From: a virus
Lineage: Duplodnaviria; Heunggongvirae; Uroviricota; Caudoviricetes
Length of the DNA: 35,498 nucleotides
Virus record (IMG/VR): IMGVR_UViG_2531839531_000004
Coordinates: 1 to 35,498 of that record
Direction: 5' to 3' (one strand)
The translations under genes were made by a program, and so were the position numbers. Below are positions 1,380-35,498 of the stretch, piece after piece. How positions within the stretch are numbered: position 1 is the stretch's first letter; every line of letters starts with the position of its first letter. A model generated the notes under the pieces. The model was given only the letters and a program-made list of their open reading frames with translations, had not been told where the DNA came from and ran no database searches.

Positions 1380-1445
1380 GCATCCTCAGTTTTTGGTCTG
1401 GTGTCTAACTTTGGGGCGCAGTTCATTTTTAATGGACACTATCGT

Positions 1446-2093
1446 ATGAAACACCGGACCTGGATCACTGAAGCTTTACGTCTTCACTTTGAAGAACATT
1501 TACCCCGGGTTGTGGCCGGGCGTCGCCTGGGTGTACCAAAATCAACAGTTTGTAGTATGTTCGTGCGCTTTCGGAGAGCTGGCCTTTCGTGGCCTTTGCC
1601 CGCAGGCATGTCGGAGCAGGAACTTGATGCCTGCCTTTACGGACAATTTTCCACGGTACCAGTCGTACGTCCTGAAAGCACCGTTATATCCGAAGCCCCC
1701 GTGGTAAAAAAACGTCCCCGGCGGCCCAACTTCCCTTATGAGTTTAAAATCGCCTTAGTGGAGCAGTCACTGCAGCCCGGAGCCTGTGTGGCGCAGATCG
1801 CCCGGGAAAACGGAATCAACGATAACCTGCTCTTCAACTGGCGCCATCAATACCGGAAAGGTGGCCTGCTGCCTTCCGGAAAAAATATGCCGGCACTGCT
1901 TCCCGTGACGTTAACGCCGGAGCCGGATAATAAAATCCCGGCCCCCGCACAGGAACCAGAGCAGATAAATACACCGTCCGACAGTCTGTGTTGTGAGCTG
2001 GTTCTGCCGGCCGGAACTCTCAGGCTTAAAGGTAAACTGACGCCGGCGTTATTACAGACACTTATCCGCGAAATAAAAGGGAGCAGCCACTGA
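1446..2093 (+). CDS. tnpA: IS66-family accessory protein (orf1/TnpA-like) with N-terminal extension
   Basis: ATG at 1446; the track start at 1401 lies inside the IS3 repeat. C-terminal half (PNFPYEFKIALVEQSLQPGACVAQIARENGINDNLLFNWR) parallels orf1 of copy 2 (RRIFSNEFKLHMVELASKPNANVAQLAREHGVDNNLIFKWL). Confidence 0.7.
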   Translation: MKHRTWITEALRLHFEEHLPRVVAGRRLGVPKSTVCSMFVRFRRAGLSWPLPAGMSEQELDACLYGQFSTVPVVRPESTVISEAPVVKKRPRRPNFPYEFKIALVEQSLQPGACVAQIARENGINDNLLFNWRHQYRKGGLLPSGKNMPALLPVTLTPEPDNKIPAPAQEPEQINTPSDSLCCELVLPAGTLRLKGKLTPALLQTLIREIKGSSH

Positions 2094-2440
2094 TGATATC
2101 TCTCCCTGCAGGTTCGCGTATCTGGCTGGTTGCAGGTATCACCGATATGCGAAATGGCTTTAACGGCCTGGCATCAAAAGTTCAGAACGTCCTGAAGGAT
2201 GACCCGTTCTCCGGACACCTGTTCATCTTCCGCGGACGCCGGGGTGACCAGATAAAAGTGTTGTGGGCTGACAGTGACGGACTGTGCCTCTTCACCAAAC
2301 GCCTGGAGCGGGGCCGCTTCGTCTGGCCAGTCACCCGTGACGGCAAGGTGCACCTTACTCCGGCTCAGTTATCCATGCTTCTTGAAGGTATCAACTGGAA
2401 GCACCCGAAACGAACGGAACGCGCTGGAATCCGCATATAA
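2093..2440 (+). CDS. tnpB: IS66-family TnpB (orf2)
   Basis: 115 aa; closely parallel to copy 2 orf2 (GxRIWLVAGxTDMRxxFNGL...HLFIFRGRRGD...LWAD.DGLCLFTKRLE). Start overlaps the orf1 stop. Confidence 0.85.
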   Translation: MISLPAGSRIWLVAGITDMRNGFNGLASKVQNVLKDDPFSGHLFIFRGRRGDQIKVLWADSDGLCLFTKRLERGRFVWPVTRDGKVHLTPAQLSMLLEGINWKHPKRTERAGIRI

Positions 2441-2459
2441 CCCGTTGTAAAGTGAGGAT

Positions 2460-4031
2460 ATGGACACCTCACTTGCTCATGAGAACGCCCGCCTGCGGGC
2501 ACTGTTGCAGACGCAACAGGACACCATCCGCCAGATGGCTGAATACAACCGCCTGCTCTCACAGCGGGTGGCGGCTTATGCTTCCGAAATCAACCGGCTG
2601 AAGGCGCTGGTTGCGAAACTGCAACGTATGCAGTTCGGTAAAAGCTCAGAAAAACTTCGTGCAAAAACCGAACGGCAGATACAGGAAGCACAGGAGCGAA
2701 TCAGCGCACTTCAGGAAGAAATGGCGGAAACGCTGGGTGAGCAATATGACCCGGTACTGCCATCCGCCCTGCGCCAGTCTTCAGCCCGTAAACCGTTACC
2801 GGCCTCACTTCCCCGTGAAACCCGGGTTATCCGGCCGGAAGAGGAATGCTGTCCTGCCTGTGGTGGTGAACTCAGTTCTCTGGGATGTGATGTGTCAGAG
2901 CAACTGGAGCTTATCAGCAGCGCCTTTAAGGTTATCGAAACACAACGTCCGAAACAGGCCTGTTGCCGGTGCGACCATATCGTGCAGGCACCAGTACCTT
3001 CAAAACCCATTGCACGCAGTTATGCCGGAGCGGGGCTTCTGGCCCATGTTGTCACCGGGAAATATGCAGACCATCTGCCGTTATACCGCCAGTCAGAAAT
3101 ATACCGTCGTCAGGGAGTGGAGCTGAGCCGTGCCACACTGGGGCGCTGGACAGGTGCTGTTGCTGAACTGCTGGAGCCGCTGTATGACGTCCTGCGCCAG
3201 TATGTGCTGATGCCCGGTAAAGTCCATGCTGATGATATCCCCGTCCCGGTCCAGGAGCCGGGCAGCGGTAAAACCCGGACAGCCCGGCTGTGGGTCTACG
3301 TCCGTGATGACCGTAACGCCGGTTCACAGATGCCCCCGGCGGTCTGGTTCGCGTACAGTCCGGACCGGAAAGGTATCCATCCACAAAATCACCTGGCCGG
3401 TTACAGCGGTGTGCTTCAGGCCGATGCTTACGGTGGTTACCGGGCGTTATACGAATCCGGCAGAATAACGGAAGCCGCGTGTATGGCTCATGCCCGGAGA
3501 AAAATCCACGATGTGCATGCAAGAGCGCCCACCTACATCACCACGGAAGCCCTGCAGCGTATCGGTGAACTGTATGCCATCGAGGCAGAGGTCCGGGGCT
3601 GTTCAGCAGAACAGCGTCTGGCGGCAAGAAAAGCCAGAGCCGCGCCACTGATGCAGTCACTGTATGACTGGATACAGCAACAGATGAAAACACTGTCGCG
3701 TCACTCAGATACGGCAAAAGCGTTCGCATACCTGCTGAAACAGTGGGATGCACTGAACGTGTACTGCAGTAATGGCTGGGTGGAAATCGACAACAACATC
3801 GCAGAGAACGCCTTACGGGGAGTGGCCGTAGGCCGGAAAAACTGGATGTTCGCGGGTTCCGACAGCGGTGGTGAACATGCGGCGGTGTTGTACTCGTTGA
3901 TCGGCACATGCCGTCTGAACAATGTGGAGCCAGAAAAGTGGCTGCGTTACGTCATTGAACATATCCAGGACTGGCCGGCAAACCGGGTACGCGATCTGTT
4001 GCCCTGGAAAGTTGATCTGAGCTCTCAGTAA
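2460..4031 (+). CDS. tnpC: IS66-family transposase TnpC (orf3)
   Basis: 523-aa ORF with N-terminal coiled-coil, CxxC...CxC zinc-finger-like region, and the conserved HLPLYRQSE, [11 protein letters not shown] and ADAYGGY segments shared with copy 2. Confidence 0.85.
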
Positions 4032-4133
4032 ATATCAATACGGTTCTGACGAGTCGCTTACTAGTGAGTTGTATCTATTTATTTTCCAATAAATACAATT
4101 GGTTATGTGTTTTTAGGTGGGGCGATCGTGAGG

Positions 4134-4182: not shown

Positions 4183-5220
4183 TTAACACCCTTTAATGGG
4201 AGTTGAGATACGAGATATCATTGCTGATTCAATTATCCCACTTCTGACTTTATAGTCACCAAAAAGAGAAATTGAATCAGAAAGTTTCATGCTTTCATAA
4301 AGAAGGTCTGTTTCGTCTTTATCTATAAAATCAGTAACAACATAAGCAGGGAAGGTATAATCAGTGCCAACCTTTTTGCAAGTTACTGTCAGCTTTCCAT
4401 CTGATTTTTTAATGCCTTCAATTTCAACTTCTTCTGTAAGTTCTTTGTTGGAAAGTTTCTCACGTGGGTTTCTTATCATTTCGGCAATATCACGCTTATC
4501 TAATTCGATCTTTGCCATACCATTAAACTCTACTCTGTCAGCATCTGAGACGCCTTTCAACACCCCAACCACAGCATTTGAAGTATGGGATTGAATTCCC
4601 TCTGAAATCTCCCTCGCAGCTGCTGTGGCAGTATGAGCAGAAAGAACTTCAACCATGCCATCTTTAAGCAGTCTCATTTGCTCAGTTTGGCTGTTGGTGT
4701 CGTTGAGGCCTTCATCAATCTCAAGTTGCTTCATTTTTTCTATATGGCGATCTTTTTGTCTCGACTTTATCAGCCAAGCCCCAGTAAGGATCAGCGATAT
4801 GAGAACGAGACATATAGCTTTCTCTGTTCCAGTCATACCTTGTGTTGACCTCTCAAATGCAACACCAAATGAATCAATTACATCCTTTATAGCAACAAGT
4901 AGGTCAGTACAGCCAGGCTCAACTTTAAAAATTATCTCAAGCTCTTTTCTATCACTGTCTTTCAAATGCTTGAGATTATCCGTTCCTCGCCTTACAAGCA
5001 TAAACGCTTTATAAAGTTCGGTCTGAAACTCGCACATACCTTGAGCTAAAGAGGACGGTATCGTCCCATTATACCGGTCTGGATCACCATAAATCTTGAA
5101 ACTTACGTGGTTAACAAAATCAATTTTAATGTCATTGATAGATATTTGCTGACCTTTCTGAACTCTTTCTAAAAACTCTGAAACGTCGCTTAATGATGAG
5201 ATATCAATTTGATTGTCCAT
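4183..5220 (-). CDS. Hypothetical single-pass membrane protein (345 aa) in the rexAB position downstream of cI
   Basis: Long ORF directly downstream of and co-oriented with cI. Start chosen at ATG 5220 (MDNQIDISS...), 22 bp past the cI stop. One hydrophobic segment (KAICLVLISLILTGAWLI) followed by a basic cluster (KSRQKDRHIEK). Region is AT-rich (about 37% GC in a 60-bp count at 4201-4260) against roughly 50% flanks. No similarity to RexA/RexB that I can recognise. Confidence 0.6.
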   Translation of the reverse strand: MDNQIDISSLSDVSEFLERVQKGQQISINDIKIDFVNHVSFKIYGDPDRYNGTIPSSLAQGMCEFQTELYKAFMLVRRGTDNLKHLKDSDRKELEIIFKVEPGCTDLLVAIKDVIDSFGVAFERSTQGMTGTEKAICLVLISLILTGAWLIKSRQKDRHIEKMKQLEIDEGLNDTNSQTEQMRLLKDGMVEVLSAHTATAAAREISEGIQSHTSNAVVGVLKGVSDADRVEFNGMAKIELDKRDIAEMIRNPREKLSNKELTEEVEIEGIKKSDGKLTVTCKKVGTDYTFPAYVVTDFIDKDETDLLYESMKLSDSISLFGDYKVRSGIIESAMISRISTPIKGC

Positions 5221-5242
5221 ATCTTTTCTCAATGTTATTGTG

Positions 5243-5959
<717 letters not shown>

Positions 5960-5966
5960 TTAAATC

Positions 5967-6032
5967 TATCACCGCAAGGGATAAATATCTAACACCGTGC
6001 GTGTTGACTGTTTTACCTCTAGCGGTGATAAT
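5967..6032. promoter_or_regulatory. Lambda right operator oR3-oR2-oR1 with divergent pRM and pR
   Basis: Three 17-bp operator sites: TATCACCGCAAGGGATA (5967-5983), TAACACCGTGCGTGTTG (5990-6006), TACCTCTAGCGGTGATA (6014-6030). pR -35 TTGACT (6004-6009) and -10 GATAAT (6027-6032). cro SD TAAGGAGG at 6045-6052. Confidence 0.9.
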
Positions 6033-6047
6033 AATTGCATGTACTAA

Positions 6048-6257
<210 letters not shown>

Positions 6258-6264
6258 ATAACAC

Positions 6265-6296
6265 CGCTCTTACACATCACAGCCCTGAAAAAGGGC
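6265..6296 (+). promoter_or_regulatory. nutR (boxA plus boxB) N-utilisation site
   Basis: boxA CGCTCTTAC at 6265-6273; boxB stem-loop GCCCTGAAAAAGGGC at 6282-6296, matching lambda nutR as I recall it. Confidence 0.85.
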
Positions 6297-6375
6297 ATCC
6301 AATTAAACCACACCTATGGTGTATGCATTTATTTTCATACATTCAATCAATTGTTATCTAAGGAAATACTTACAT

Positions 6376-6669
6376 ATGGTTCGTGCAAACAAACGCAACG
6401 AGGCACTACGAATCGAGAGTGCGTTGCTTAACAAAATCGCAATGCTTGGAACTGAGAAGACAGCGGAAGCTGTGGGAGTTGATAAGTCGCAGATCAGCAG
6501 GTGGAAGAGGGACTGGATTCCAAAGTTCTCAATGCTGCTTGCTGTTCTTGAATGGGGGGTCGTTGACGACGACATGGCTCGATTGGCGCGACAAGTTGCT
6601 GCGATTCTCACCAATAAAAAACGCCCGGCGGCAACCGAGCGTTCTGAACAAATCCAGATGGAGTTCTGA
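6376..6669 (+). CDS. cII: CII transcriptional activator
   Basis: 97 aa from ATG 6376 (MVRANKRNEALRIESALLNKIAMLGTEKTAEAVGVDKSQISRWKRDW...) matches lambda CII. The track ORF from 6316 is an upstream alternative-start extension. Confidence 0.93.
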   Translation: MVRANKRNEALRIESALLNKIAMLGTEKTAEAVGVDKSQISRWKRDWIPKFSMLLAVLEWGVVDDDMARLARQVAAILTNKKRPAATERSEQIQMEF

Positions 6670-6690
6670 GGTCATTACTGGATCTATCAA
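6612..6690 (-). ncRNA. oop: oop antisense RNA with its t0 terminator
   Basis: Reverse complement of 6597-6698 reads ...GACTCCTGTTGATAGATCCAGTAATGACCTCAGAACTCCATCTGGATTTGTTCAGAACGCTCGGTTGCCGCCGGGCGTTTTTTATTGG, the lambda oop/t0 sequence as I recall it. Exact 5' end not determinable from sequence alone. Confidence 0.55.
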
Positions 6691-6701
6691 CAGGAGTCAT
6701 T

Positions 6702-7601
6702 ATGACAAATACAGCAAAAATACTCAACTTCGGCAGAGGTAACTTTGCCGGACAGGAGCGTAATGTGGCAGATCTCGATGATGGTTACGCCAGACTATCA
6801 AATATGCTGCTTGAGGCTTATTCGGGCGCAGATCTGACCAAGCGACAGTTTAAAGTGCTGCTTGCCATTCTGCGTAAAACCTATGGGTGGAATAAACCAA
6901 TGGACAGAATCACCGATTCTCAACTTAGCGAGATTACAAAGTTACCCGTCAAACGGTGCAATGAAGCCAAGTTAGAACTCGTCAGAATGAATATTATCAA
7001 GCAGCAAGGCGGCATGTTTGGACCAAATAAAAACATCTCAGAATGGTGCATCCCTCAAAACGAGGGAAAATCCCCTAAAACGAGGGATAAAACATCCCTC
7101 AAATTGGGGGATTGCTATCCCTCAAAACAGGGGGACACAAAAGACACTATTACAAAAGAAAAAAGAAAAGATTATTCGTCAGAGAATTCTGGCGAATCCT
7201 CTGACCAGCCAGAAAACGACCTTTCTGTGGTGAAACCGGATGCTGCAATTCAGAGCGGCAGCAAGTGGGGGACAGCAGAAGGCCTGACCGCCGCAGAGTG
7301 GATGTTTGACATGGTGAAGACTATCGCACCATCAGCCAGAAAACCGAATTTTGCTGGGTGGGCTAACGATATCCGCCTGATGCGTGAACGTGACGGACGT
7401 AACCACCGCGACATGTGCGTGCTGTTCCGCTGGGCATGCCAGGACAACTTCTGGTCCGGTAACGTGCTGAGCCCGGCCAAACTCCGCGATAAGTGGACCC
7501 AACTCGAAATCAACCGTAACAAGCAACAGGCAGGCGTGACAGCCAGCAAACCAAAACTCGACCTGACAAACACAGACTGGATTTACGGGGTGGATCTATG
7601 A
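6702..7601 (+). CDS. O: Replication initiator protein O
   Basis: 299-aa product matching lambda O; contains the ori iterons internally. Confidence 0.95.
   Translation: MTNTAKILNFGRGNFAGQERNVADLDDGYARLSNMLLEAYSGADLTKRQFKVLLAILRKTYGWNKPMDRITDSQLSEITKLPVKRCNEAKLELVRMNIIKQQGGMFGPNKNISEWCIPQNEGKSPKTRDKTSLKLGDCYPSKQGDTKDTITKEKRKDYSSENSGESSDQPENDLSVVKPDAAIQSGSKWGTAEGLTAAEWMFDMVKTIAPSARKPNFAGWANDIRLMRERDGRNHRDMCVLFRWACQDNFWSGNVLSPAKLRDKWTQLEINRNKQQAGVTASKPKLDLTNTDWIYGVDL
7050..7195 (+). promoter_or_regulatory. ori-lambda: four iterons plus AT-rich unwinding region, inside O
   Basis: Four direct repeats of the TCCCTCAAAACGAGGGA type (7050-7134), then an A/T-rich stretch ACAAAAGAAAAAAGAAAAGATTATT (about 7136-7195). 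Confidence 0.85.
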
Positions 7602-8299
7602 AAAACATCGCCGCACAGATGGTTAACTTTGACCGTGAGCAGATGCGTCGGATCGCCAACAACATGCCGGAACAGTACGACGAAAAGCCGCAGGTACAGC
7701 AGGTAGCGCAGATCATCAACGGTGTGTTCAGCCAGTTACTGGCAACTTTCCCGGCGAGCCTGGCTAACCGTGACCAGAACGAAGTGAACGAAATCCGTCG
7801 CCAGTGGGTTCTGGCTTTTCGGGAAAACGGGATCACCACGATGGAACAGGTTAACGCAGGAATGCGCGTAGCCCGTCGGCAGAATCGACCATTTCTGCCA
7901 TCACCCGGGCAGTTTGTTGCATGGTGCCGGGAAGAAGCATCCGTTACCGCCGGACTGCCAAACGTCAGCGAGCTGGTTGATATGGTTTACGAGTATTGCC
8001 GGAAGCGAGGCCTGTATCCGGATGCGGAGTCTTATCCGTGGAAATCAAACGCGCACTACTGGCTGGTTACCAACCTGTATCAGAACATGCGGGCCAATGC
8101 GCTTACTGATGCGGAATTACGCCGTAAGGCCGCAGATGAGCTTGTCCATATGACTGCGAGAATTAACCGTGGTGAGGCGATCCCTGAACCAGTAAAACAA
8201 CTTCCTGTCATGGGCGGTAGACCTCTAAATCGTGCACAGGCTCTGGCGAAGATCGCAGAAATCAAAGCTAAGTTCGGACTGAAAGGAGCAAGTGTATGA
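7598..8299 (+). CDS. P: Replication protein P (DnaB helicase loader)
   Basis: 233-aa product matching lambda P; start overlaps the O stop (ATGA at 7598-7601). Confidence 0.95.
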   Translation: MKNIAAQMVNFDREQMRRIANNMPEQYDEKPQVQQVAQIINGVFSQLLATFPASLANRDQNEVNEIRRQWVLAFRENGITTMEQVNAGMRVARRQNRPFLPSPGQFVAWCREEASVTAGLPNVSELVDMVYEYCRKRGLYPDAESYPWKSNAHYWLVTNLYQNMRANALTDAELRRKAADELVHMTARINRGEAIPEPVKQLPVMGGRPLNRAQALAKIAEIKAKFGLKGASV

Positions 8300-8586
8300 C
8301 GGGCAAAGAGGCAATTATTCATTACCTGGGGACGCATAATAGCTTCTGTGCGCCGGACGTTGCCGCGCTAACAGGCGCAACAGTAACCAGCATAAATCAG
8401 GCCGCGGCTAAAATGGCACGGGCAGGTCTTCTGGTTATCGAAGGTAAGGTCTGGCGAACGGTGTATTACCGGTTTGCTACCAAGGAAGAACGGGAAGGAA
8501 AGATGAGCACGAACCTGATTTTTAAGGAGTGTCGCCAGAGTGCCGCGATGAAACGGGTATTGGCAGTATATGGAGTTAAAAGATGA
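8296..8586 (+). CDS. ren: Ren (Rex-exclusion resistance) protein
   Basis: 96-aa product matching lambda Ren (MTGKEAIIHYLGTHNSFCAPDVAALTGATVTSINQAAAKMARAGLLVIEGKVWRTVYYRFATKEE...). Confidence 0.9.
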   Translation: MTGKEAIIHYLGTHNSFCAPDVAALTGATVTSINQAAAKMARAGLLVIEGKVWRTVYYRFATKEEREGKMSTNLIFKECRQSAAMKRVLAVYGVKR

Positions 8587-8659: not shown

Positions 8660-8730
8660 ATGAAAAAACTAACCTTTGAAATTCGATCTCCAGCACATCA
8701 GCAAAACGCTATTCACGCGGTACAGCAAAT
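8660..8730 (+). pseudogene. ninB: ninB 5' fragment (first ~23 codons), truncated by IS66 insertion
   Basis: ATG at 8660 gives MKKLTFEIRSPAHQQNAIHAVQQ, the lambda NinB N-terminus as I recall it. The reading frame runs straight into the IS66 left repeat at 8731. Confidence 0.8.
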
Positions 8731-8815
8731 GTAAGCGTAAAGCCAATGCCGTCTGTAACACCTGCTCCTTGCAGACTAAATTAGAGCTCCTTCTAAATTA
8801 GACGGAGTTCTATTG

Positions 8816-9247
8816 ATGGATAAACCTACAGACTGGCGCTCCGGAACCCGCCGGATATTTTCTAATGAATTTAAACTTCATATGGTTGAACTGGCTTCGA
8901 AACCAAATGCCAATGTTGCACAACTGGCCCGGGAACATGGCGTTGATAACAACCTGATTTTTAAATGGCTACGCCTCTGGCAAAGAGAAGGACGTATTTC
9001 TCGTAGAATGCCTCCAACTATTGTAGGCCCTACAGTATCACAATCTTTTCCGGCCTCTCCGACTCTGGTTCCAGTGGAACTTATCGACACCCCGCGCTGT
9101 GCTACAGATGCTCCTGCTCCGGAGGCATTATCAGTTGCTTGCGCAGCTTCCTGCCATGTGGAATTCCATTACGGTAAAATGATGCTGGAAAATCCTTCAC
9201 CAGAGCTGCTCACGGTGTTGATCCGTGAGCTGACCGGGAGGGGATGA
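8816..9247 (+). CDS. tnpA: IS66-family accessory protein (orf1/TnpA)
   Basis: ATG at 8816 (MDKPTDWRSGTRRIFSNEFKLHMVELASKPNANVAQLAREHGVDNNLIFKWLR...); HTH-like region; stop overlaps the orf2 start. Confidence 0.8.
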   Translation: MDKPTDWRSGTRRIFSNEFKLHMVELASKPNANVAQLAREHGVDNNLIFKWLRLWQREGRISRRMPPTIVGPTVSQSFPASPTLVPVELIDTPRCATDAPAPEALSVACAASCHVEFHYGKMMLENPSPELLTVLIRELTGRG

Positions 9248-9597
9248 TGATTTCACTCCCATCAGGTACCCGTATCTGGCTCGTTGCCGGCGTTACTGAT
9301 ATGCGTAAATCCTTCAACGGTCTGGGGGAGCAGATACAGCATGTGCTGGATGATAACCCCTTCTCCGGTCACCTGTTTATCTTCCGTGGCCGACGGGGAG
9401 ACACGATTAAAATCCTGTGGGCTGATGCTGATGGTCTGTGCCTGTTCACCAAACGCCTTGAGGAAGGTCAGTTTATCTGGCCTGCGGTGCGTGACGGTAA
9501 GATATCCATTACCCGCTCGCAACTGGCAATGCTCCTCGATAAGCTGGACTGGCGTCAGCCAAAAACATCCCGCCTTAACGCACTGACAATGTTGTAA
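9244..9597 (+). CDS. tnpB: IS66-family TnpB (orf2)
   Basis: 117 aa, parallel to copy 1 TnpB. Confidence 0.85.
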   Translation: MMISLPSGTRIWLVAGVTDMRKSFNGLGEQIQHVLDDNPFSGHLFIFRGRRGDTIKILWADADGLCLFTKRLEEGQFIWPAVRDGKISITRSQLAMLLDKLDWRQPKTSRLNALTML

Positions 9598-9627
9598 AAA
9601 ACGCCGGGCCGGATTATAAAAACGGCC

Positions 9628-11240
9628 ATGAGTCAGAAATACCTCATTCGCATCGCTGAGCTGGAAAGGCTGCTCTCTGAGCAGGCTGAAGCCCTCCGTC
9701 AGAAAGACCAGCAACTGAGTCTGGTTGAAGAGACGGAGGCCTTCCTGCGCTCTGCACTGGCACGTGCCGAAGAAAAGATCGAAGAAGATGAGCGAGAAAT
9801 AGAGCATCTGCGGGCTCAGATAGAAAAACTGCGCCGGATGCTGTTTGGAACCCGTTCTGAAAAACTGCGTCGTGAGGTTGAACAGGCTGAAGCCCTGCTG
9901 AAACAACGCGAGCAGGAAAGCGATCGTTACAGTGGGCGTGAGGATGACCCGCTGGTTCCCCGCCAGTTGCGACAGTCGCGCCATCGTCGTCCGTTACCGG
10001 CACATCTCCCCCGTGAAATATACCGCCTGGAGCCTGAAGAAAGCTGTTGCCCGGAGTGTGGCGGTGAGCTGGATTATCTGGGGGAAGTCAGCGCAGAACA
10101 ACTGGAACTGGTGAGCAGCGCCCTGAAAGTGATCCGCACAGAACGGGTAAAAAAGCCTGTACAAAATGTGACTGCATCGTTGAAGCACCGGCGCCGTCCC
10201 GCCCGATAGAGCGTGGTATCGCGGGCCCCGGATTACTTGCCCGCGTGTTAACGGGAAAATACTGCGAACACCTGCCACTGTATCGTCAGAGTGAAATCTT
10301 TGCCCGACAGGGTGTCGAACTGAGCCGTGCATTACTCTCCAACTGGGTTGACGCGTGCTGCCAGTTAATGACGCCGCTGAATGATGCCCTGTACCGTTAT
10401 GTGATGAATACCCGCAAGCTTCACACTGACGACACACCGGTAAAGGTACTGGCACCGGGCCTGAAAAAGACGAAAACAGGGCGCATCTGGACGTATGTCC
10501 GGGATGATCGCAATGCGGGTTCGTCATCTCCTCCGGCGGTCTGGTTCGCGTACTCATCGAACCGGCAGGGGAAACACCCGGAGCAACACCTCCGCCCCTT
10601 CCGGGGTATCCTGCAGGCGGATGCGTTCACAGGTTATGACAGGCTGTTCAGTGCAGAACGTGAAGGTAGTGCGCTGACAGAAGTTGCGTGCTGGGCTCAT
10701 GCCCGGAGAAAAATCCACGATGTATACATCAGCAGCAAAAGTGCGACGGCAGAAGAAGCCCTGAAGCGAATCAGTGAACTGTACGCCATCGAGGATGAAA
10801 TACGGGGATTACCAGAGTCAGAACGTCTTGCAGCCAGGCAGCAGCGAAGCAAAGCGTTACTGACGTCGCTGCATGAATGGATGGTGGAGAAGAATGGCAC
10901 GCTGTCGAAAAAATCCAGACTGGGCGAAGCGTTCAGCTATGTACTGAATCAGTGGGACGCCCTCTGTTATTACAGTGATGACGGTCTGGCGGAGGTGGAC
11001 AATAACACAGCGGAAAGAGCGCTTCGTGCAGTCTGTCTCGGAAAGAAAAATTACGTGTTCTTCGGTAGCGATCACGGCGGCGAGCGTGGAGCACTGCTGT
11101 ACGGGCTGATCGGCACCTGCCGTCTGAACGGTATCGATCCGGAAGCGTATCTGCGCCATATTCTGAGCGTACTGCCGGAATGGCCCTCCAACCGTGTTGA
11201 CGAACTCCTGCCATGGAACGTAGTACTCACCAATAAATAA
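9628..11240 (+). pseudogene. tnpC: IS66-family transposase TnpC, split by a 1-bp frameshift at an A-run
   Basis: ORFs 9628-10209 and 10245-11240 together cover a full TnpC. In the -1 frame from the A6 run at 10149-10154 the sequence reads [49 protein letters not shown], aligning with copy 1 (...[46 protein letters not shown]). Confidence 0.8.
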
Positions 11241-11270
11241 GCGTCAATACGGTGCTCCGTTGACGCTTAC

Positions 11271-11765
11271 AAGGACTGCTGGCAAACGCCGCTTTGGCTT
11301 TTTGATGCACTGGATATTGAGTTTGGATTCTGGCTGGATTCGGCAGCGAGCGACAAAAATGCTCTGTGTGCTCACTGGCTAACTGAGGCCGACGACGCGC
11401 TCAATTCTGAGTGGGTAAGCCACGGTGCAATCTGGAATAACCCACCGTACAGCAATATCAGGCCGTGGGTGGAAAAAGCCGCTGAGCAGTGCATACAACA
11501 GCGACAGACGGTAGTTATGCTTGTGCCAGAGGATATGTCAGTCGGATGGTTCAGCAAGGCTCTGGAGAGTGTCGACGAAGTTCGCATTATCACTGATGGA
11601 CGGATTAATTTTATCGAACCATCGACAGGGCTGGAGAAGAAGGGAAACAGCAAAGGCTCCATGCTGCTGATTTGGCGACCGTTCATCAGTCCTCGACGGA
11701 TGTTTACTACCGTATCCAAAGCGGCATTGATGGCGATCGGGCAGGGCGTCAGGAGGGCGGCATGA
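11271..11765 (+). pseudogene. Phage N6-adenine DNA methyltransferase (Dam-like), 5'-truncated at the IS66 boundary
   Basis: Frame is open from the IS66 right end with no start codon. Translation contains FDALDIEFGFWLDSAASDKNALC...WNNPPYS (NPPY motif IV of N6A methyltransferases). Stop TGA at 11763-11765 overlaps the ninE ATG. Confidence 0.7.
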
Positions 11766-11938
11766 GGCGACAGCGACGAAGTTTCACCGACATCATCTGC
11801 GAAAACTGCAAATACCTTCCAACGAAACGCTCCAGAAATAAACGCAAGCCAATCCCAAAAGAATCTGACGTAAAAACCTTCAATTACACAGCTCACCTGT
11901 GGGATATCCGGTGGCTAAGATATCGTGCGAGGAAATGA
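11762..11938 (+). CDS. ninE: NinE
   Basis: 58-aa product [58 protein letters not shown], matching lambda/DLP12 NinE as I recall it. Confidence 0.8.
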
Positions 11939-33938: not shown

Positions 33939-35498
33939 ATGGGTAAAGGCAGCAGTAAGGGGCATACTCCGCGCGAAGCGAAGGACAACCTGAAGTCCAC
34001 GCAGTTGCTGAGTGTGATCGATGCCATCAGCGAAGGGCCGGTTGAAGGTCCGGTGGATGGATTAAAAAGCGTGCTGCTGAACAGTACGCCAGTGCTGGAC
34101 AGTGAGGGGAATACCAATATCTCCGGCGTCACGGTGGTGTTCCGGGCCGGTGAGCAGGAGCAGACACCGCCGGAGGGATTTGAATCCTCCGGCTCCGAGA
34201 CGGTGCTGGGTACGGAAGTGAAATACGACACGCCGATCACCCGGACCATCACGTCGGCAAACATTGACCGACTGCGTTTTACCTTCGGCGTGCAGGCACT
34301 GGTGGAAACCACCTCAAAGGGGGACAGGAATCCGTCGGAAGTCCGCCTGCTGGTTCAGATCCAGCGTAATGGTGGCTGGGTGACGGAAAAAGATATCACC
34401 ATTAAGGGCAAAACCACCTCGCAGTATCTGGCCTCGGTGGTGGTGGGTAACCTGCCGCCGCGCCCGTTCAATATCCGGATGCGCAGGATGACGCCGGACA
34501 GCACCACAGACCAGCTGCAGAACAAAACGCTCTGGTCGTCATACACCGAAATCATCGATGTGAAACAGGGCTACCCGAACACGGCACTGGTCGGCGTGCA
34601 GGTGGATTCGGAGCAGTTCGGCAGCCAGCAGGTGAGCCGTAATTATCATCTGCGCGGGCGCATTCTGCAGGTGCCGTCGAACTATAACCCGCAGACGCGG
34701 CAATACAGCGGTATCTGGGACGGGACGTTTAAACCGGCATACAGCAACAACATGGCCTGGTGTCTGTGGGATATGCTGACCCACCCGCGCTACGGCATGG
34801 GGAAACGTCTCGGTGCGGCGGATGTGGACAAATGGGCGCTGTATGTCATCGGCCAGAATTGTGACCAGTCGGTGCCGGACGGCTTTGGCGGTACGGAGCC
34901 GCGCATCACCTGTAATGCCTGGCTGACCACACAGCGCAAGGCGTGGGATGTGCTCAGTGATTTCTGCTCGGCGATGCGCTGTATGCCGGTATGGAACGGG
35001 CAGACGCTGACGTTCGTGCAGGACCGACCGTCGGATAAGGTGTGGACCTATAACCGCAGTAATGTGGTGATGCCGGATGATGGTGCGCCGTTCCGCTACA
35101 GCTTCAGCGCCCTGAAGGACCGCCATAATGCCGTTGAGGTGAACTGGATTGACCCGAATAACGGCTGGGAGACGGCGACAGAGCTTGTGGAGGACACGCA
35201 GGCCATTGCCCGTTACGGTCGTAACGTCACGAAGATGGATGCTTTTTGGCTGTACCAGCCGGGGGCAGGCACACCGCGCCGGGCTGTGGCTGATTAAAAC
35301 AGAACTGCTGGAAACGCAGACCGTGGACTTCAGCGTGGGTGCCGAAGGGCTTCGCCATGTACCGGGCGATGTCATTGAAATCTGCGATGATGACTATGCC
35401 GGTATCCGCACCGGCGGGCGCGTGCTGGCGGTAAACAGCCAGACCCGGACGCTGACGCTCGACCGTGAAATCACGCTGCCATCTTCCGGCACCACGCT
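33939..35498 (+). pseudogene. J: Central tail fibre / host-specificity protein J, interrupted by a +1-nt frameshift; 3' end beyond the window
   Basis: The first 452 codons match lambda gpJ, then stop at 35295-35297. After the T5 run at 35244-35248 the next frame stays open to the window end and reads GCTSRGQAHRAGLWLIKTELLETQTVDFSVGAEGLRHVPGDVIEICDDDYAG..., which I recall as the lambda J continuation. Confidence 0.8.

Follow-up and report, generated by a model that had tools for sequence, protein, structure and literature searches.

A copy of the IS66-family element ISEc47 without its target duplication in a lambda-like prophage: insertion into dam and a probable adjacent deletion into ninB

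Replicative transposition is the mode of movement of IS1, IS903, IS26, Tn3 and Mu, and the intramolecular form of the reaction gives rise to adjacent deletions. Those made by these elements share four features: they start exactly at an IS end, they leave the IS and its other junction in place, they take away one copy of the target duplication, and they display no microhomology. While the elements named transpose replicatively, the pathway used by the IS66 family has not been established, its transposition having been described as "insufficiently characterized" (PMC12898284), so the shared adjacent-deletion mechanism is one that we infer for the locus described here. The literature on adjacent deletions by IS66 elements and on ISEc47 yielded nothing relevant.

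The undisturbed state of the locus is represented by the nin regions of phages ev099, ev243, Lambda_ev245, 1H12 and mEp332, which share the order ren-ninB-dam-ninE-ninX-...-rusA-Q and are 98.6-100% identical to the flanks in the window (the whole 35,498-nt stretch of DNA analysed). They differ from it in carrying no IS and in having complete ninB and dam genes. In these intact relatives ninB (441 bp) overlaps dam (528 bp; NC_049953.1 40020-40547) by 4 bp, and in phage ev099 (NC_049953.1) 399 bp lie between the counterparts of the two flank ends of the window. The ninB end and the dam frame are therefore not naturally contiguous, a comparison that had been set beforehand as a check on the first-pass annotation and that does not refute it. 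The features of the locus are collected in Table 1.

Table 1. Coordinates of the features at the ninB-IS-dam locus, as positions in the window.
Feature	Position	Strand	Details
ninB 5' remnant	8660..8730	+	71 bp: codons 1-23 plus AT
Deletion junction	8730..8731	.	407 bp of CP189652.1 (L016 3077-3483) absent
ISEc47-like IS (IS66 family)	8731..11270	+	2540 bp; first bases GTAAGCG, last CGCTTAC
Terminal inverted repeats, imperfect	8731-8754 and 11247-11270		start GTAAGCGT / GTAAGCG
tnpA	8816..9247	+	143 aa, HTH_Tnp_1 (PF01527)
tnpB	9244..9597	+	117 aa, IS66 Orf2-like accessory protein, PF05717, E = 3e-36
tnpC, DDE transposase, split	9628..11240	+	PF13007, PF13005, PF03050, PF13817
Right-hand copy of original 8-bp target duplication, retained	11271..11278	+	AAGGACTG = dam nt 34-41
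dam, phage Dam-type N6-adenine methyltransferase remnant	11271..11765	+	164/175 codons; PF05869, E = 3e-62
ninE	11762..11938	+	first intact gene downstream; PF05322

The inserted element resembles ISEc47, whose relatives include ISEc23, ISEc43, IS679 and ISEc8, in its size of 2.5 kb, its tnpA-tnpB-tnpC order, its IS66 Pfam domains and its GTAAGCG termini. Its ends were set by aligning three ISEc47 copies, two of which sit in unrelated flanks, and the name was taken from RefSeq product labels ("IS66-like element ISEc47 family") on copies with 99.6-99.8% nucleotide identity. The terminal inverted repeats match at the first 8 of 8 positions and then at about 15 of 24. The HTH protein TnpA and the IS66 Orf2-like TnpB are encoded upstream of tnpC, as is the gene order of the family, and TnpC carries the leucine-zipper, zinc-finger and DDE_Tnp_IS66 domains by which IS66 members are recognized.

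One departure from ISEc47 was observed in tnpC, which is divided between ORFs of 193 aa (9628-10209) and 331 aa (10245-11240) owing to an A run that is 1 bp shorter, A6 at 10149-10154 rather than the A7 of ISEc47. When A7 is put back a single 537-aa ORF results, as in the sister genome CP189652.1 described below. The A6 form occurs in 6 of 3390 complete-genome records and is frequent in drafts of 2012-13; a general homopolymer error may or may not have been the source of the frameshift. Given the frameshift, activity of the copy would today require transposase provided in trans, a point against a deletion made by its own transposase, unless the shift in frame came later or is an assembly error.

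The ninB remnant, which matches ninB of lambda, ev099 and phage 21 at 99-100% identity, breaks off 71 bp into the gene where the left repeat begins, just as the first-pass annotation had placed it. Reading on into the IS adds MKKLTFEIRSPAHQQNAIHAVQQM before a stop codon. Cut to 23 codons, ninB, the gene of the Orf recombination mediator, is a pseudogene. On the other side, the right repeat adjoins a methyltransferase frame that is open from the tnpC stop (11238-11240) to 11765 and matches dam of phage ev243 at 100% identity. This frame spans positions 9-167 of the 169 in the Pfam Dam profile, thus the full-length domain, and includes the NPPY catalytic motif (11439-11450). Its description as the C-terminal two-thirds of the enzyme proved too low, as 94% of the codons are kept and only 11 are missing. 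With those first 11 codons the start codon and ribosome-binding site are gone, and from the tnpC stop to 11469, past NPPY, there is no ATG, GTG or TTG; the frame, correctly reported as start-less, is not a complete gene and is probably a pseudogene.

The 8 bp flanking the two IS ends are unrelated, as had been noted from the sequence, being CAGCAAAT (8723-8730) on the left and AAGGACTG on the right, so the window copy is without a target duplication. Its siblings differ in this respect: of nine distinct ISEc47 copies examined, six (the CP189652.1 copy and five others) have 8-bp duplications, which bears out the expectation of an 8-bp direct repeat for this element.

The complete chromosome CP189652.1 was found to carry the same prophage, the same IS copy and the same right junction as the window, and to represent the allele before deletion. 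There (L016/L031) the order is cI-cro-cII-O-P-ren-ninB-IS-dam'-ninE-ninX-rusA-ylcG-Q-porin, with an intact ninB of 146 aa (Pfam PF05772) and a 172-aa call for dam'. The IS is flanked on both sides by AAGGACTG, a perfect 8-bp duplication of dam nt 34-41, its left junction reading GACAAGGACTG followed by GTAAGCG; the partner of the window's right-hand 8-mer is thus at the left end of the IS, so that the second check set for the first-pass annotation does not refute it either. The window and this chromosome are colinear from position 1 to at least 17765 at >99.9% identity, with one SNP in 3076 bp of the left flank, one in 6495 bp of the right flank and no substitution in the IS. A 407-bp gap is the only structural difference. 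Relative to the window, the CP189652.1 allele has 407 bp more DNA, a whole ninB, the 41-bp 5' end of dam and the A7 form of tnpC. The right junction, CGCTTAC followed by AAGGACTGCTGG, is identical in the window, in CP189652.1 and, independently, in a third assembly, APZL01000083.1 (L018). Searched for as an exact pattern among viral, metagenome and GTDB genome contigs, this IS-dam junction had a single match, a viral one, which is the APZL contig again.

The missing 407 bp comprise ninB nt 72-441 and dam nt 1-41, including the left copy of the duplication, and the deletion edge falls on the exact first nucleotide of the IS, the left end of which now adjoins ninB nt 71. The IS itself is unaltered and its right junction is as in the undeleted allele. 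Between the breakpoints (...CAGCAAAT followed by TCTTCC..., against ...AAGGACTG followed by GTAAGCG...) no microhomology was found. The window copy lacks a duplication because one of its flanks was deleted, and this secondary absence is no argument against membership of the IS66 family. The original target was dam rather than ninB, which the first-pass annotation had taken as the site of insertion and which was reached only by the later deletion; its broader proposal, insertion followed by loss of the end of ninB and the beginning of dam, is supported by CP189652.1.

The best explanation, to which we give a probability of about 0.6, is insertion of ISEc47 into dam followed by a left-end adjacent deletion into ninB, most likely through intramolecular transposition. 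As the CP189652.1 allele documents, ISEc47 (2541 bp) first transposed into dam of a lambda-like prophage, duplicating AAGGACTG and splitting the gene after codon 13. In the lineage of the contig the 407 bp directly to the left of the IS were then lost, presumably by an attack of the IS ends on a target 407 bp upstream in the same molecule, with the intervening DNA leaving on a non-replicating circle. The outcome is a dam without start codon and a 2.5-kb IS remaining between P/ren and ninE-Q. Since the edge is flush, neither the IS nor its right junction has changed and microhomology is absent, a deletion made by the transposase is the most likely kind, and the short distance of 407 bp favours an intramolecular event in cis.

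A possible but rather unlikely course is that a second ISEc47 in the same orientation entered ninB at nt 71, duplicating CAGCAAAT and creating a right junction of the IS with CAGCAAATTCTTCC, after which RecA-dependent recombination removed one copy together with the 407 bp. Its end product would be identical to the sequence seen; the first-pass annotation had named both this course and a one-step adjacent deletion, and the pair is supported together, as the sequence would fit both alike. Strains of this group do contain several ISEc47 copies, and other IS66-family elements have entered the same prophage module independently, in P and O. The extra insertion, however, would have had to land by chance only 407 bp from the first and in the right orientation, with a genome of roughly 5 Mb open to it. 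Moreover, among 5426 complete genomes of E. coli in RefSeq none had the two-copy state or a junction of the IS with CAGCAAAT, nor did any have either junction of the window. The viral collection, where that hypothetical right junction was sought as an exact pattern, was likewise negative, and the exact pattern of the ninB-IS left junction matched nothing in the viral and metagenome collections.

An assembly artefact appears less probable still. In that case the source strain would have the CP189652.1 arrangement, and a unitig ending at ninB nt 71 would have been abutted to the IS repeat unitig, an error that would put a repeat boundary at the IS end. The contig belongs to a draft assembly of 2013 (GCA_000356625, AQFE01000019.1) and starts inside an IS3-family repeat; its three 1-bp indels relative to CP189652.1 all lie within IS elements, and J has a 1-bp frameshift (35243) compared with phage ev099 that is possibly another assembly error. 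Against this, two IS elements are read through in full, the contig is otherwise colinear with, and >99.9% identical to, a finished chromosome, all eight other long homopolymer runs in the compared stretch (A/T >=7, G/C >=6) agree with CP189652.1, and the joined ends share no overlap or similarity able to mislead an overlap assembler. The contig is present in three samples, though these may be a single assembly in several versions and not separate isolates.

Very improbable is a transposase-independent deletion (replication slippage or illegitimate recombination) ending at the IS by coincidence, or a primary insertion that removed target DNA: such deletions occur in decaying prophages, with nothing specific to point to one here, but the breakpoints have no microhomology, a breakpoint falling precisely on the first base of the IS would arise by chance about once in several hundred cases, and insertion and deletion were separate events, since the sister genome has the same IS copy with a perfect duplication.

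The adjacent deletion favoured above is a familiar, unremarkable form of prophage decay and involves no new system or function. Its one merit lies in a naturally occurring before/after comparison, the window against CP189652.1, for an IS family of poorly characterised mechanism; it offers a modest, testable indication that adjacent deletions can be the work of IS66-family elements. That the two sequences show ISEc47 to be capable of intramolecular, replicative-type transposition leading to a flush adjacent deletion is a suggestion that could go either way. If true, it would give a first insight into the mechanism of a family with an uncharacterised transposition pathway, and would suggest that IS66 elements actively erode prophages beyond merely interrupting them. 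For annotation, the decay of both ninB and dam can be attributed to one IS acting in two steps, with the missing duplication explained.

Other candidates in the neighbourhood were set aside. Strains Q65 and 214-4, the best matches among complete E. coli genomes, are not ancestors; they have independent ISEc23/ISEc43 insertions in P and O of sister prophages. A second IS66-family element in the window (about 1401-4061) was rejected as a recombination partner, being 63-74% identical at the nucleotide level over parts only and having the same arrangement in the undeleted CP189652.1. Nor did the upstream IS elements delete the left arm of the prophage: at position 1 the contig breaks off within an element of the IS3 family, and the CP189652.1 prophage goes on beyond this point through N, sieB, ral, cIII, kil, gam, bet and exo.

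More generally, the lack of a target duplication around an IS is the mark of a rearrangement, the ancestor of which can sometimes be recovered through a junction-specific ORF look-up. Used as a query, the 374-aa form of the ORF beside cI matched short metagenome contigs alone; the query that succeeded was its 345-aa form.

The window makes up the entire draft contig AQFE01000019.1 (35,498 bp, assembly GCA_000356625.2) and carries a lambda-like prophage segment, the features of which are listed in the table. The ninB gene starts at 8660 and keeps 71 bp (23 codons plus AT) that match ninB of phages 21, ev099 and lambda at 99-100% identity, before the sequence switches at 8731 to an insertion sequence opening with GTAAGCGTAAAGCC. 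From 11271 onwards the window matches the dam-ninE-ninX block of phage ev243 without a difference (100% identity) and that of about fifteen other lambda-like phages at 99.8-99.9%. The ends of the element were set by alignment with two other copies in unrelated DNA, identity beginning and stopping at exactly these borders.

Features of the prophage segment and its insertion sequences (window coordinates)
Feature	Coordinates	Strand	Remarks
IS3-family element	33-1379	minus	contig starts inside it; abuts second IS66-family element
Second, different IS66-family element	about 1401-4061		tnpA about 1401-2093; tnpB 2093-2440
tnpC of second IS66-family element	2460-4031		intact, 523 aa
345-aa ORF	4183-5220	minus	alternative start 5307; directly downstream of cI, in the rexAB position of lambda
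cI	5243-5956	minus	cro and cII also present
O	6702-7601		
P	7598-8299		
ren	8296-8586		followed by the insertion region
ISEc47-like IS66-family element	8731-11270		2540 bp; right terminus ...GACGCTTAC
ninE, ninX, rusA, ylcG, Q, porin gene			beyond the insertion region
Lysis genes, then lambda-type head and tail genes			up to J

The element is 99.6-99.8% identical to RefSeq copies labelled 'IS66-like element ISEc47 family', and the name ISEc47, as applied here, rests on those product labels. Its products are TnpA (HTH_Tnp_1), TnpB (E = 3e-36 for the IS66 Orf2-like domain) and TnpC, in which leucine-zipper, zinc-finger and DDE domains of IS66 type were identified. The inverted repeats at its ends are imperfect (8/8 matches, then about 15/24). 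The 8-mers directly outside it, CAGCAAAT on the left and AAGGACTG on the right, confirm the observation in the first-pass annotation that no 8-bp target duplication is present. This is unusual for ISEc47, as a perfect 8-bp duplication was found at six of the nine distinct copies examined and one of 7 bp at one more. The element is an IS66 family member in every tested feature but the duplication, the absence of which is secondary. Among the other copies, the one at 5104-7643 of AIGT01000028.1 (L006) has a 7-bp rather than an 8-bp repeat (A GTATTGC, IS, GTATTGC T), and those at two further loci (L004 and L010) lie without any duplication among other IS fragments, contexts that suggest further IS-associated rearrangements.

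Alignment with the intact nin region of phage ev099 (NC_049953.1; ninB 39583-40023, methyltransferase gene 40020-40547, 175 codons) showed that the ninB and dam flanks of the window are not contiguous there: the left match stops at 39653 and the right one restarts at 40053, so that 399 bp are missing from the window. The loss from dam is limited to its initial 33 bp (11 codons), leaving 164 of 175 codons, considerably more than the C-terminal two-thirds proposed earlier, a figure that probably stems from the first canonical start, GTG at 11469. The remnant covers positions 9-167 of 169 of the Pfam Dam profile (E = 3e-62), with NPPY at 11439-11450. Its frame is open back to the in-frame tnpC stop TAA (11238-11240), with 10 sense codons between, and contains no ATG, GTG or TTG upstream of NPPY. 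The truncated gene is most likely dead, and residual Dam expression would require non-canonical initiation or reinitiation. In one annotation pipeline, a 172-aa 'Dam' was predicted with ATA at 11247 as its start.

Neither IS junction was found in complete RefSeq E. coli genomes (0 of 5426). The ancestral state was then sought through the junction-specific 172-aa protein, which starts inside the right end of the IS and continues into dam. Three contigs carry it: the window, APZL01000083.1 (which begins inside the IS) and CP189652.1, a complete chromosome of 4.94 Mb. The latter has the order cI-cro-cII-O-P-ren-ninB(146 aa, intact)-IS-dam'-ninE, and its junctions read ...ATGACTATCAAATCAAATACGCCAGCACACGAC AAGGACTG, GTAAGCG...IS...CGCTTAC, AAGGACTG CTGGCAAACG... 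The arrangement is that of a classic simple insertion, in which dam nt 34-41 were duplicated as the 8-bp target. The missing duplication partner is located at the left IS end of CP189652.1, and the element originally inserted into dam and not, as first proposed, into ninB.

The left flank (3076 bp) and the right flank (6495 bp) of the window each differ from CP189652.1 by one SNP, and the 2.5 kb of IS by no substitution; colinearity extends from window position 1 at least as far as 17765. The two genomes belong to one lineage. The sole structural difference is the absence from the window of 407 bp (3077-3483 of the CP189652.1 locus L016), comprising ninB nt 72-441 and dam nt 1-41 (allowing for their 4-bp overlap) and including the left duplication copy, which is consistent with the phage comparison (407 = 399 + 8). 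Since the deleted state could not give rise again to a perfect duplication, insertion into dam came first and deletion second. APZL01000083.1 has the same right junction and the CP189652.1 allele at the single right-flank SNP, indicating that the insertion is ancestral in a small clade and the deletion private to the window lineage.

The deletion starts exactly at the outermost base of the left inverted repeat and takes in one duplication copy; the IS itself and the junction on its right are unaltered. No microhomology was found between the breakpoints (...CAGCAAAT/TCTTCC... versus ...AAGGACTG/GTAAGCG...). Together these features are the signature of transposase-made adjacent deletion, as for IS1, IS903, IS26, Tn3 and Mu. 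We infer that the deletion arose in one step by this route (probability about 0.6), in which the IS ends would attack a site close by on their own molecule, the intervening DNA leaving as a circle and then being lost. The succession of insertion and IS-mediated deletion put forward in the first-pass annotation is supported. The same product would result if a further ISEc47 copy had inserted at ninB nt 71 and homologous recombination had followed; this is rather unlikely, however, as the additional insertion would have to land 407 bp away in the correct orientation, and no trace of a two-copy state was seen in the 5426 complete E. coli genomes or the viral collection. Still more doubtful is a draft-assembly artefact abutting an early-ending unitig to a repeat unitig, given that the contig spans two complete IS elements and agrees elsewhere with a finished chromosome at >99.9%. 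That a transposase-independent deletion ended at the IS by coincidence is highly improbable.

The main caveat on the one-step adjacent deletion is that the chemistry of IS66 transposition is not established, the process being 'insufficiently characterized' as of a 2026 paper (PMC12898284); this is also the only source of wider interest in the window and CP189652.1 pair. The feature is genuine and has been fully explained; it is ordinary, a fresh instance of a familiar event. Erosion of prophages by IS-mediated adjacent deletion is well known.

The window tnpC (9628-11240) is split into 193 and 331 aa because an A7 run is shortened to A6 at 10149-10154. The otherwise identical CP189652.1 copy has A7, and A6 occurs in only 6 of 3390 complete-genome records, yet in draft assemblies of 2012-13 it is present at many loci that have normal 8-bp duplications. 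Either a genuine slippage mutation, for which transcriptional slippage or transposase in trans might compensate, or a systematic assembly error could account for A6.

The second IS66-family element has only 63-74% nucleotide identity to ISEc47; its right end CGCTTAC lies at 4061, and a GTAAGCG left end was sought for it and not found. Together with the IS3-family element it lies between N and the cI-adjacent gene, likewise in CP189652.1. Two sister prophages carry independent IS66-family insertions in the same early-gene module, ISEc23 in P in strain Q65 (L002, NZ_CP180222.1) and a nested ISEc43/ISEc23 in O in strain 214-4 (L003, NZ_CP025840.1), with ninB and dam intact in both. IS66-family elements seem to land repeatedly in the replication/nin module.

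The J-like tail-tip gene (33939 to contig end) has a 1-bp insertion near 35243 relative to J of ev099 (GATGCTTTTTGG versus GATGC-CTTTGG), the frameshift leading to a stop at 35297; J-like sequence resumes in another frame and reaches the contig end, which points either to a pseudogene or to an error in the assembly. The 345-aa ORF had no Pfam or PADLOC match and a single PHROG, phrog_6191 (unknown function). It is common next to cI across many lambdoid prophages (1338 collection blocks listed) and is a candidate for an unknown type of superinfection-exclusion or defence gene.
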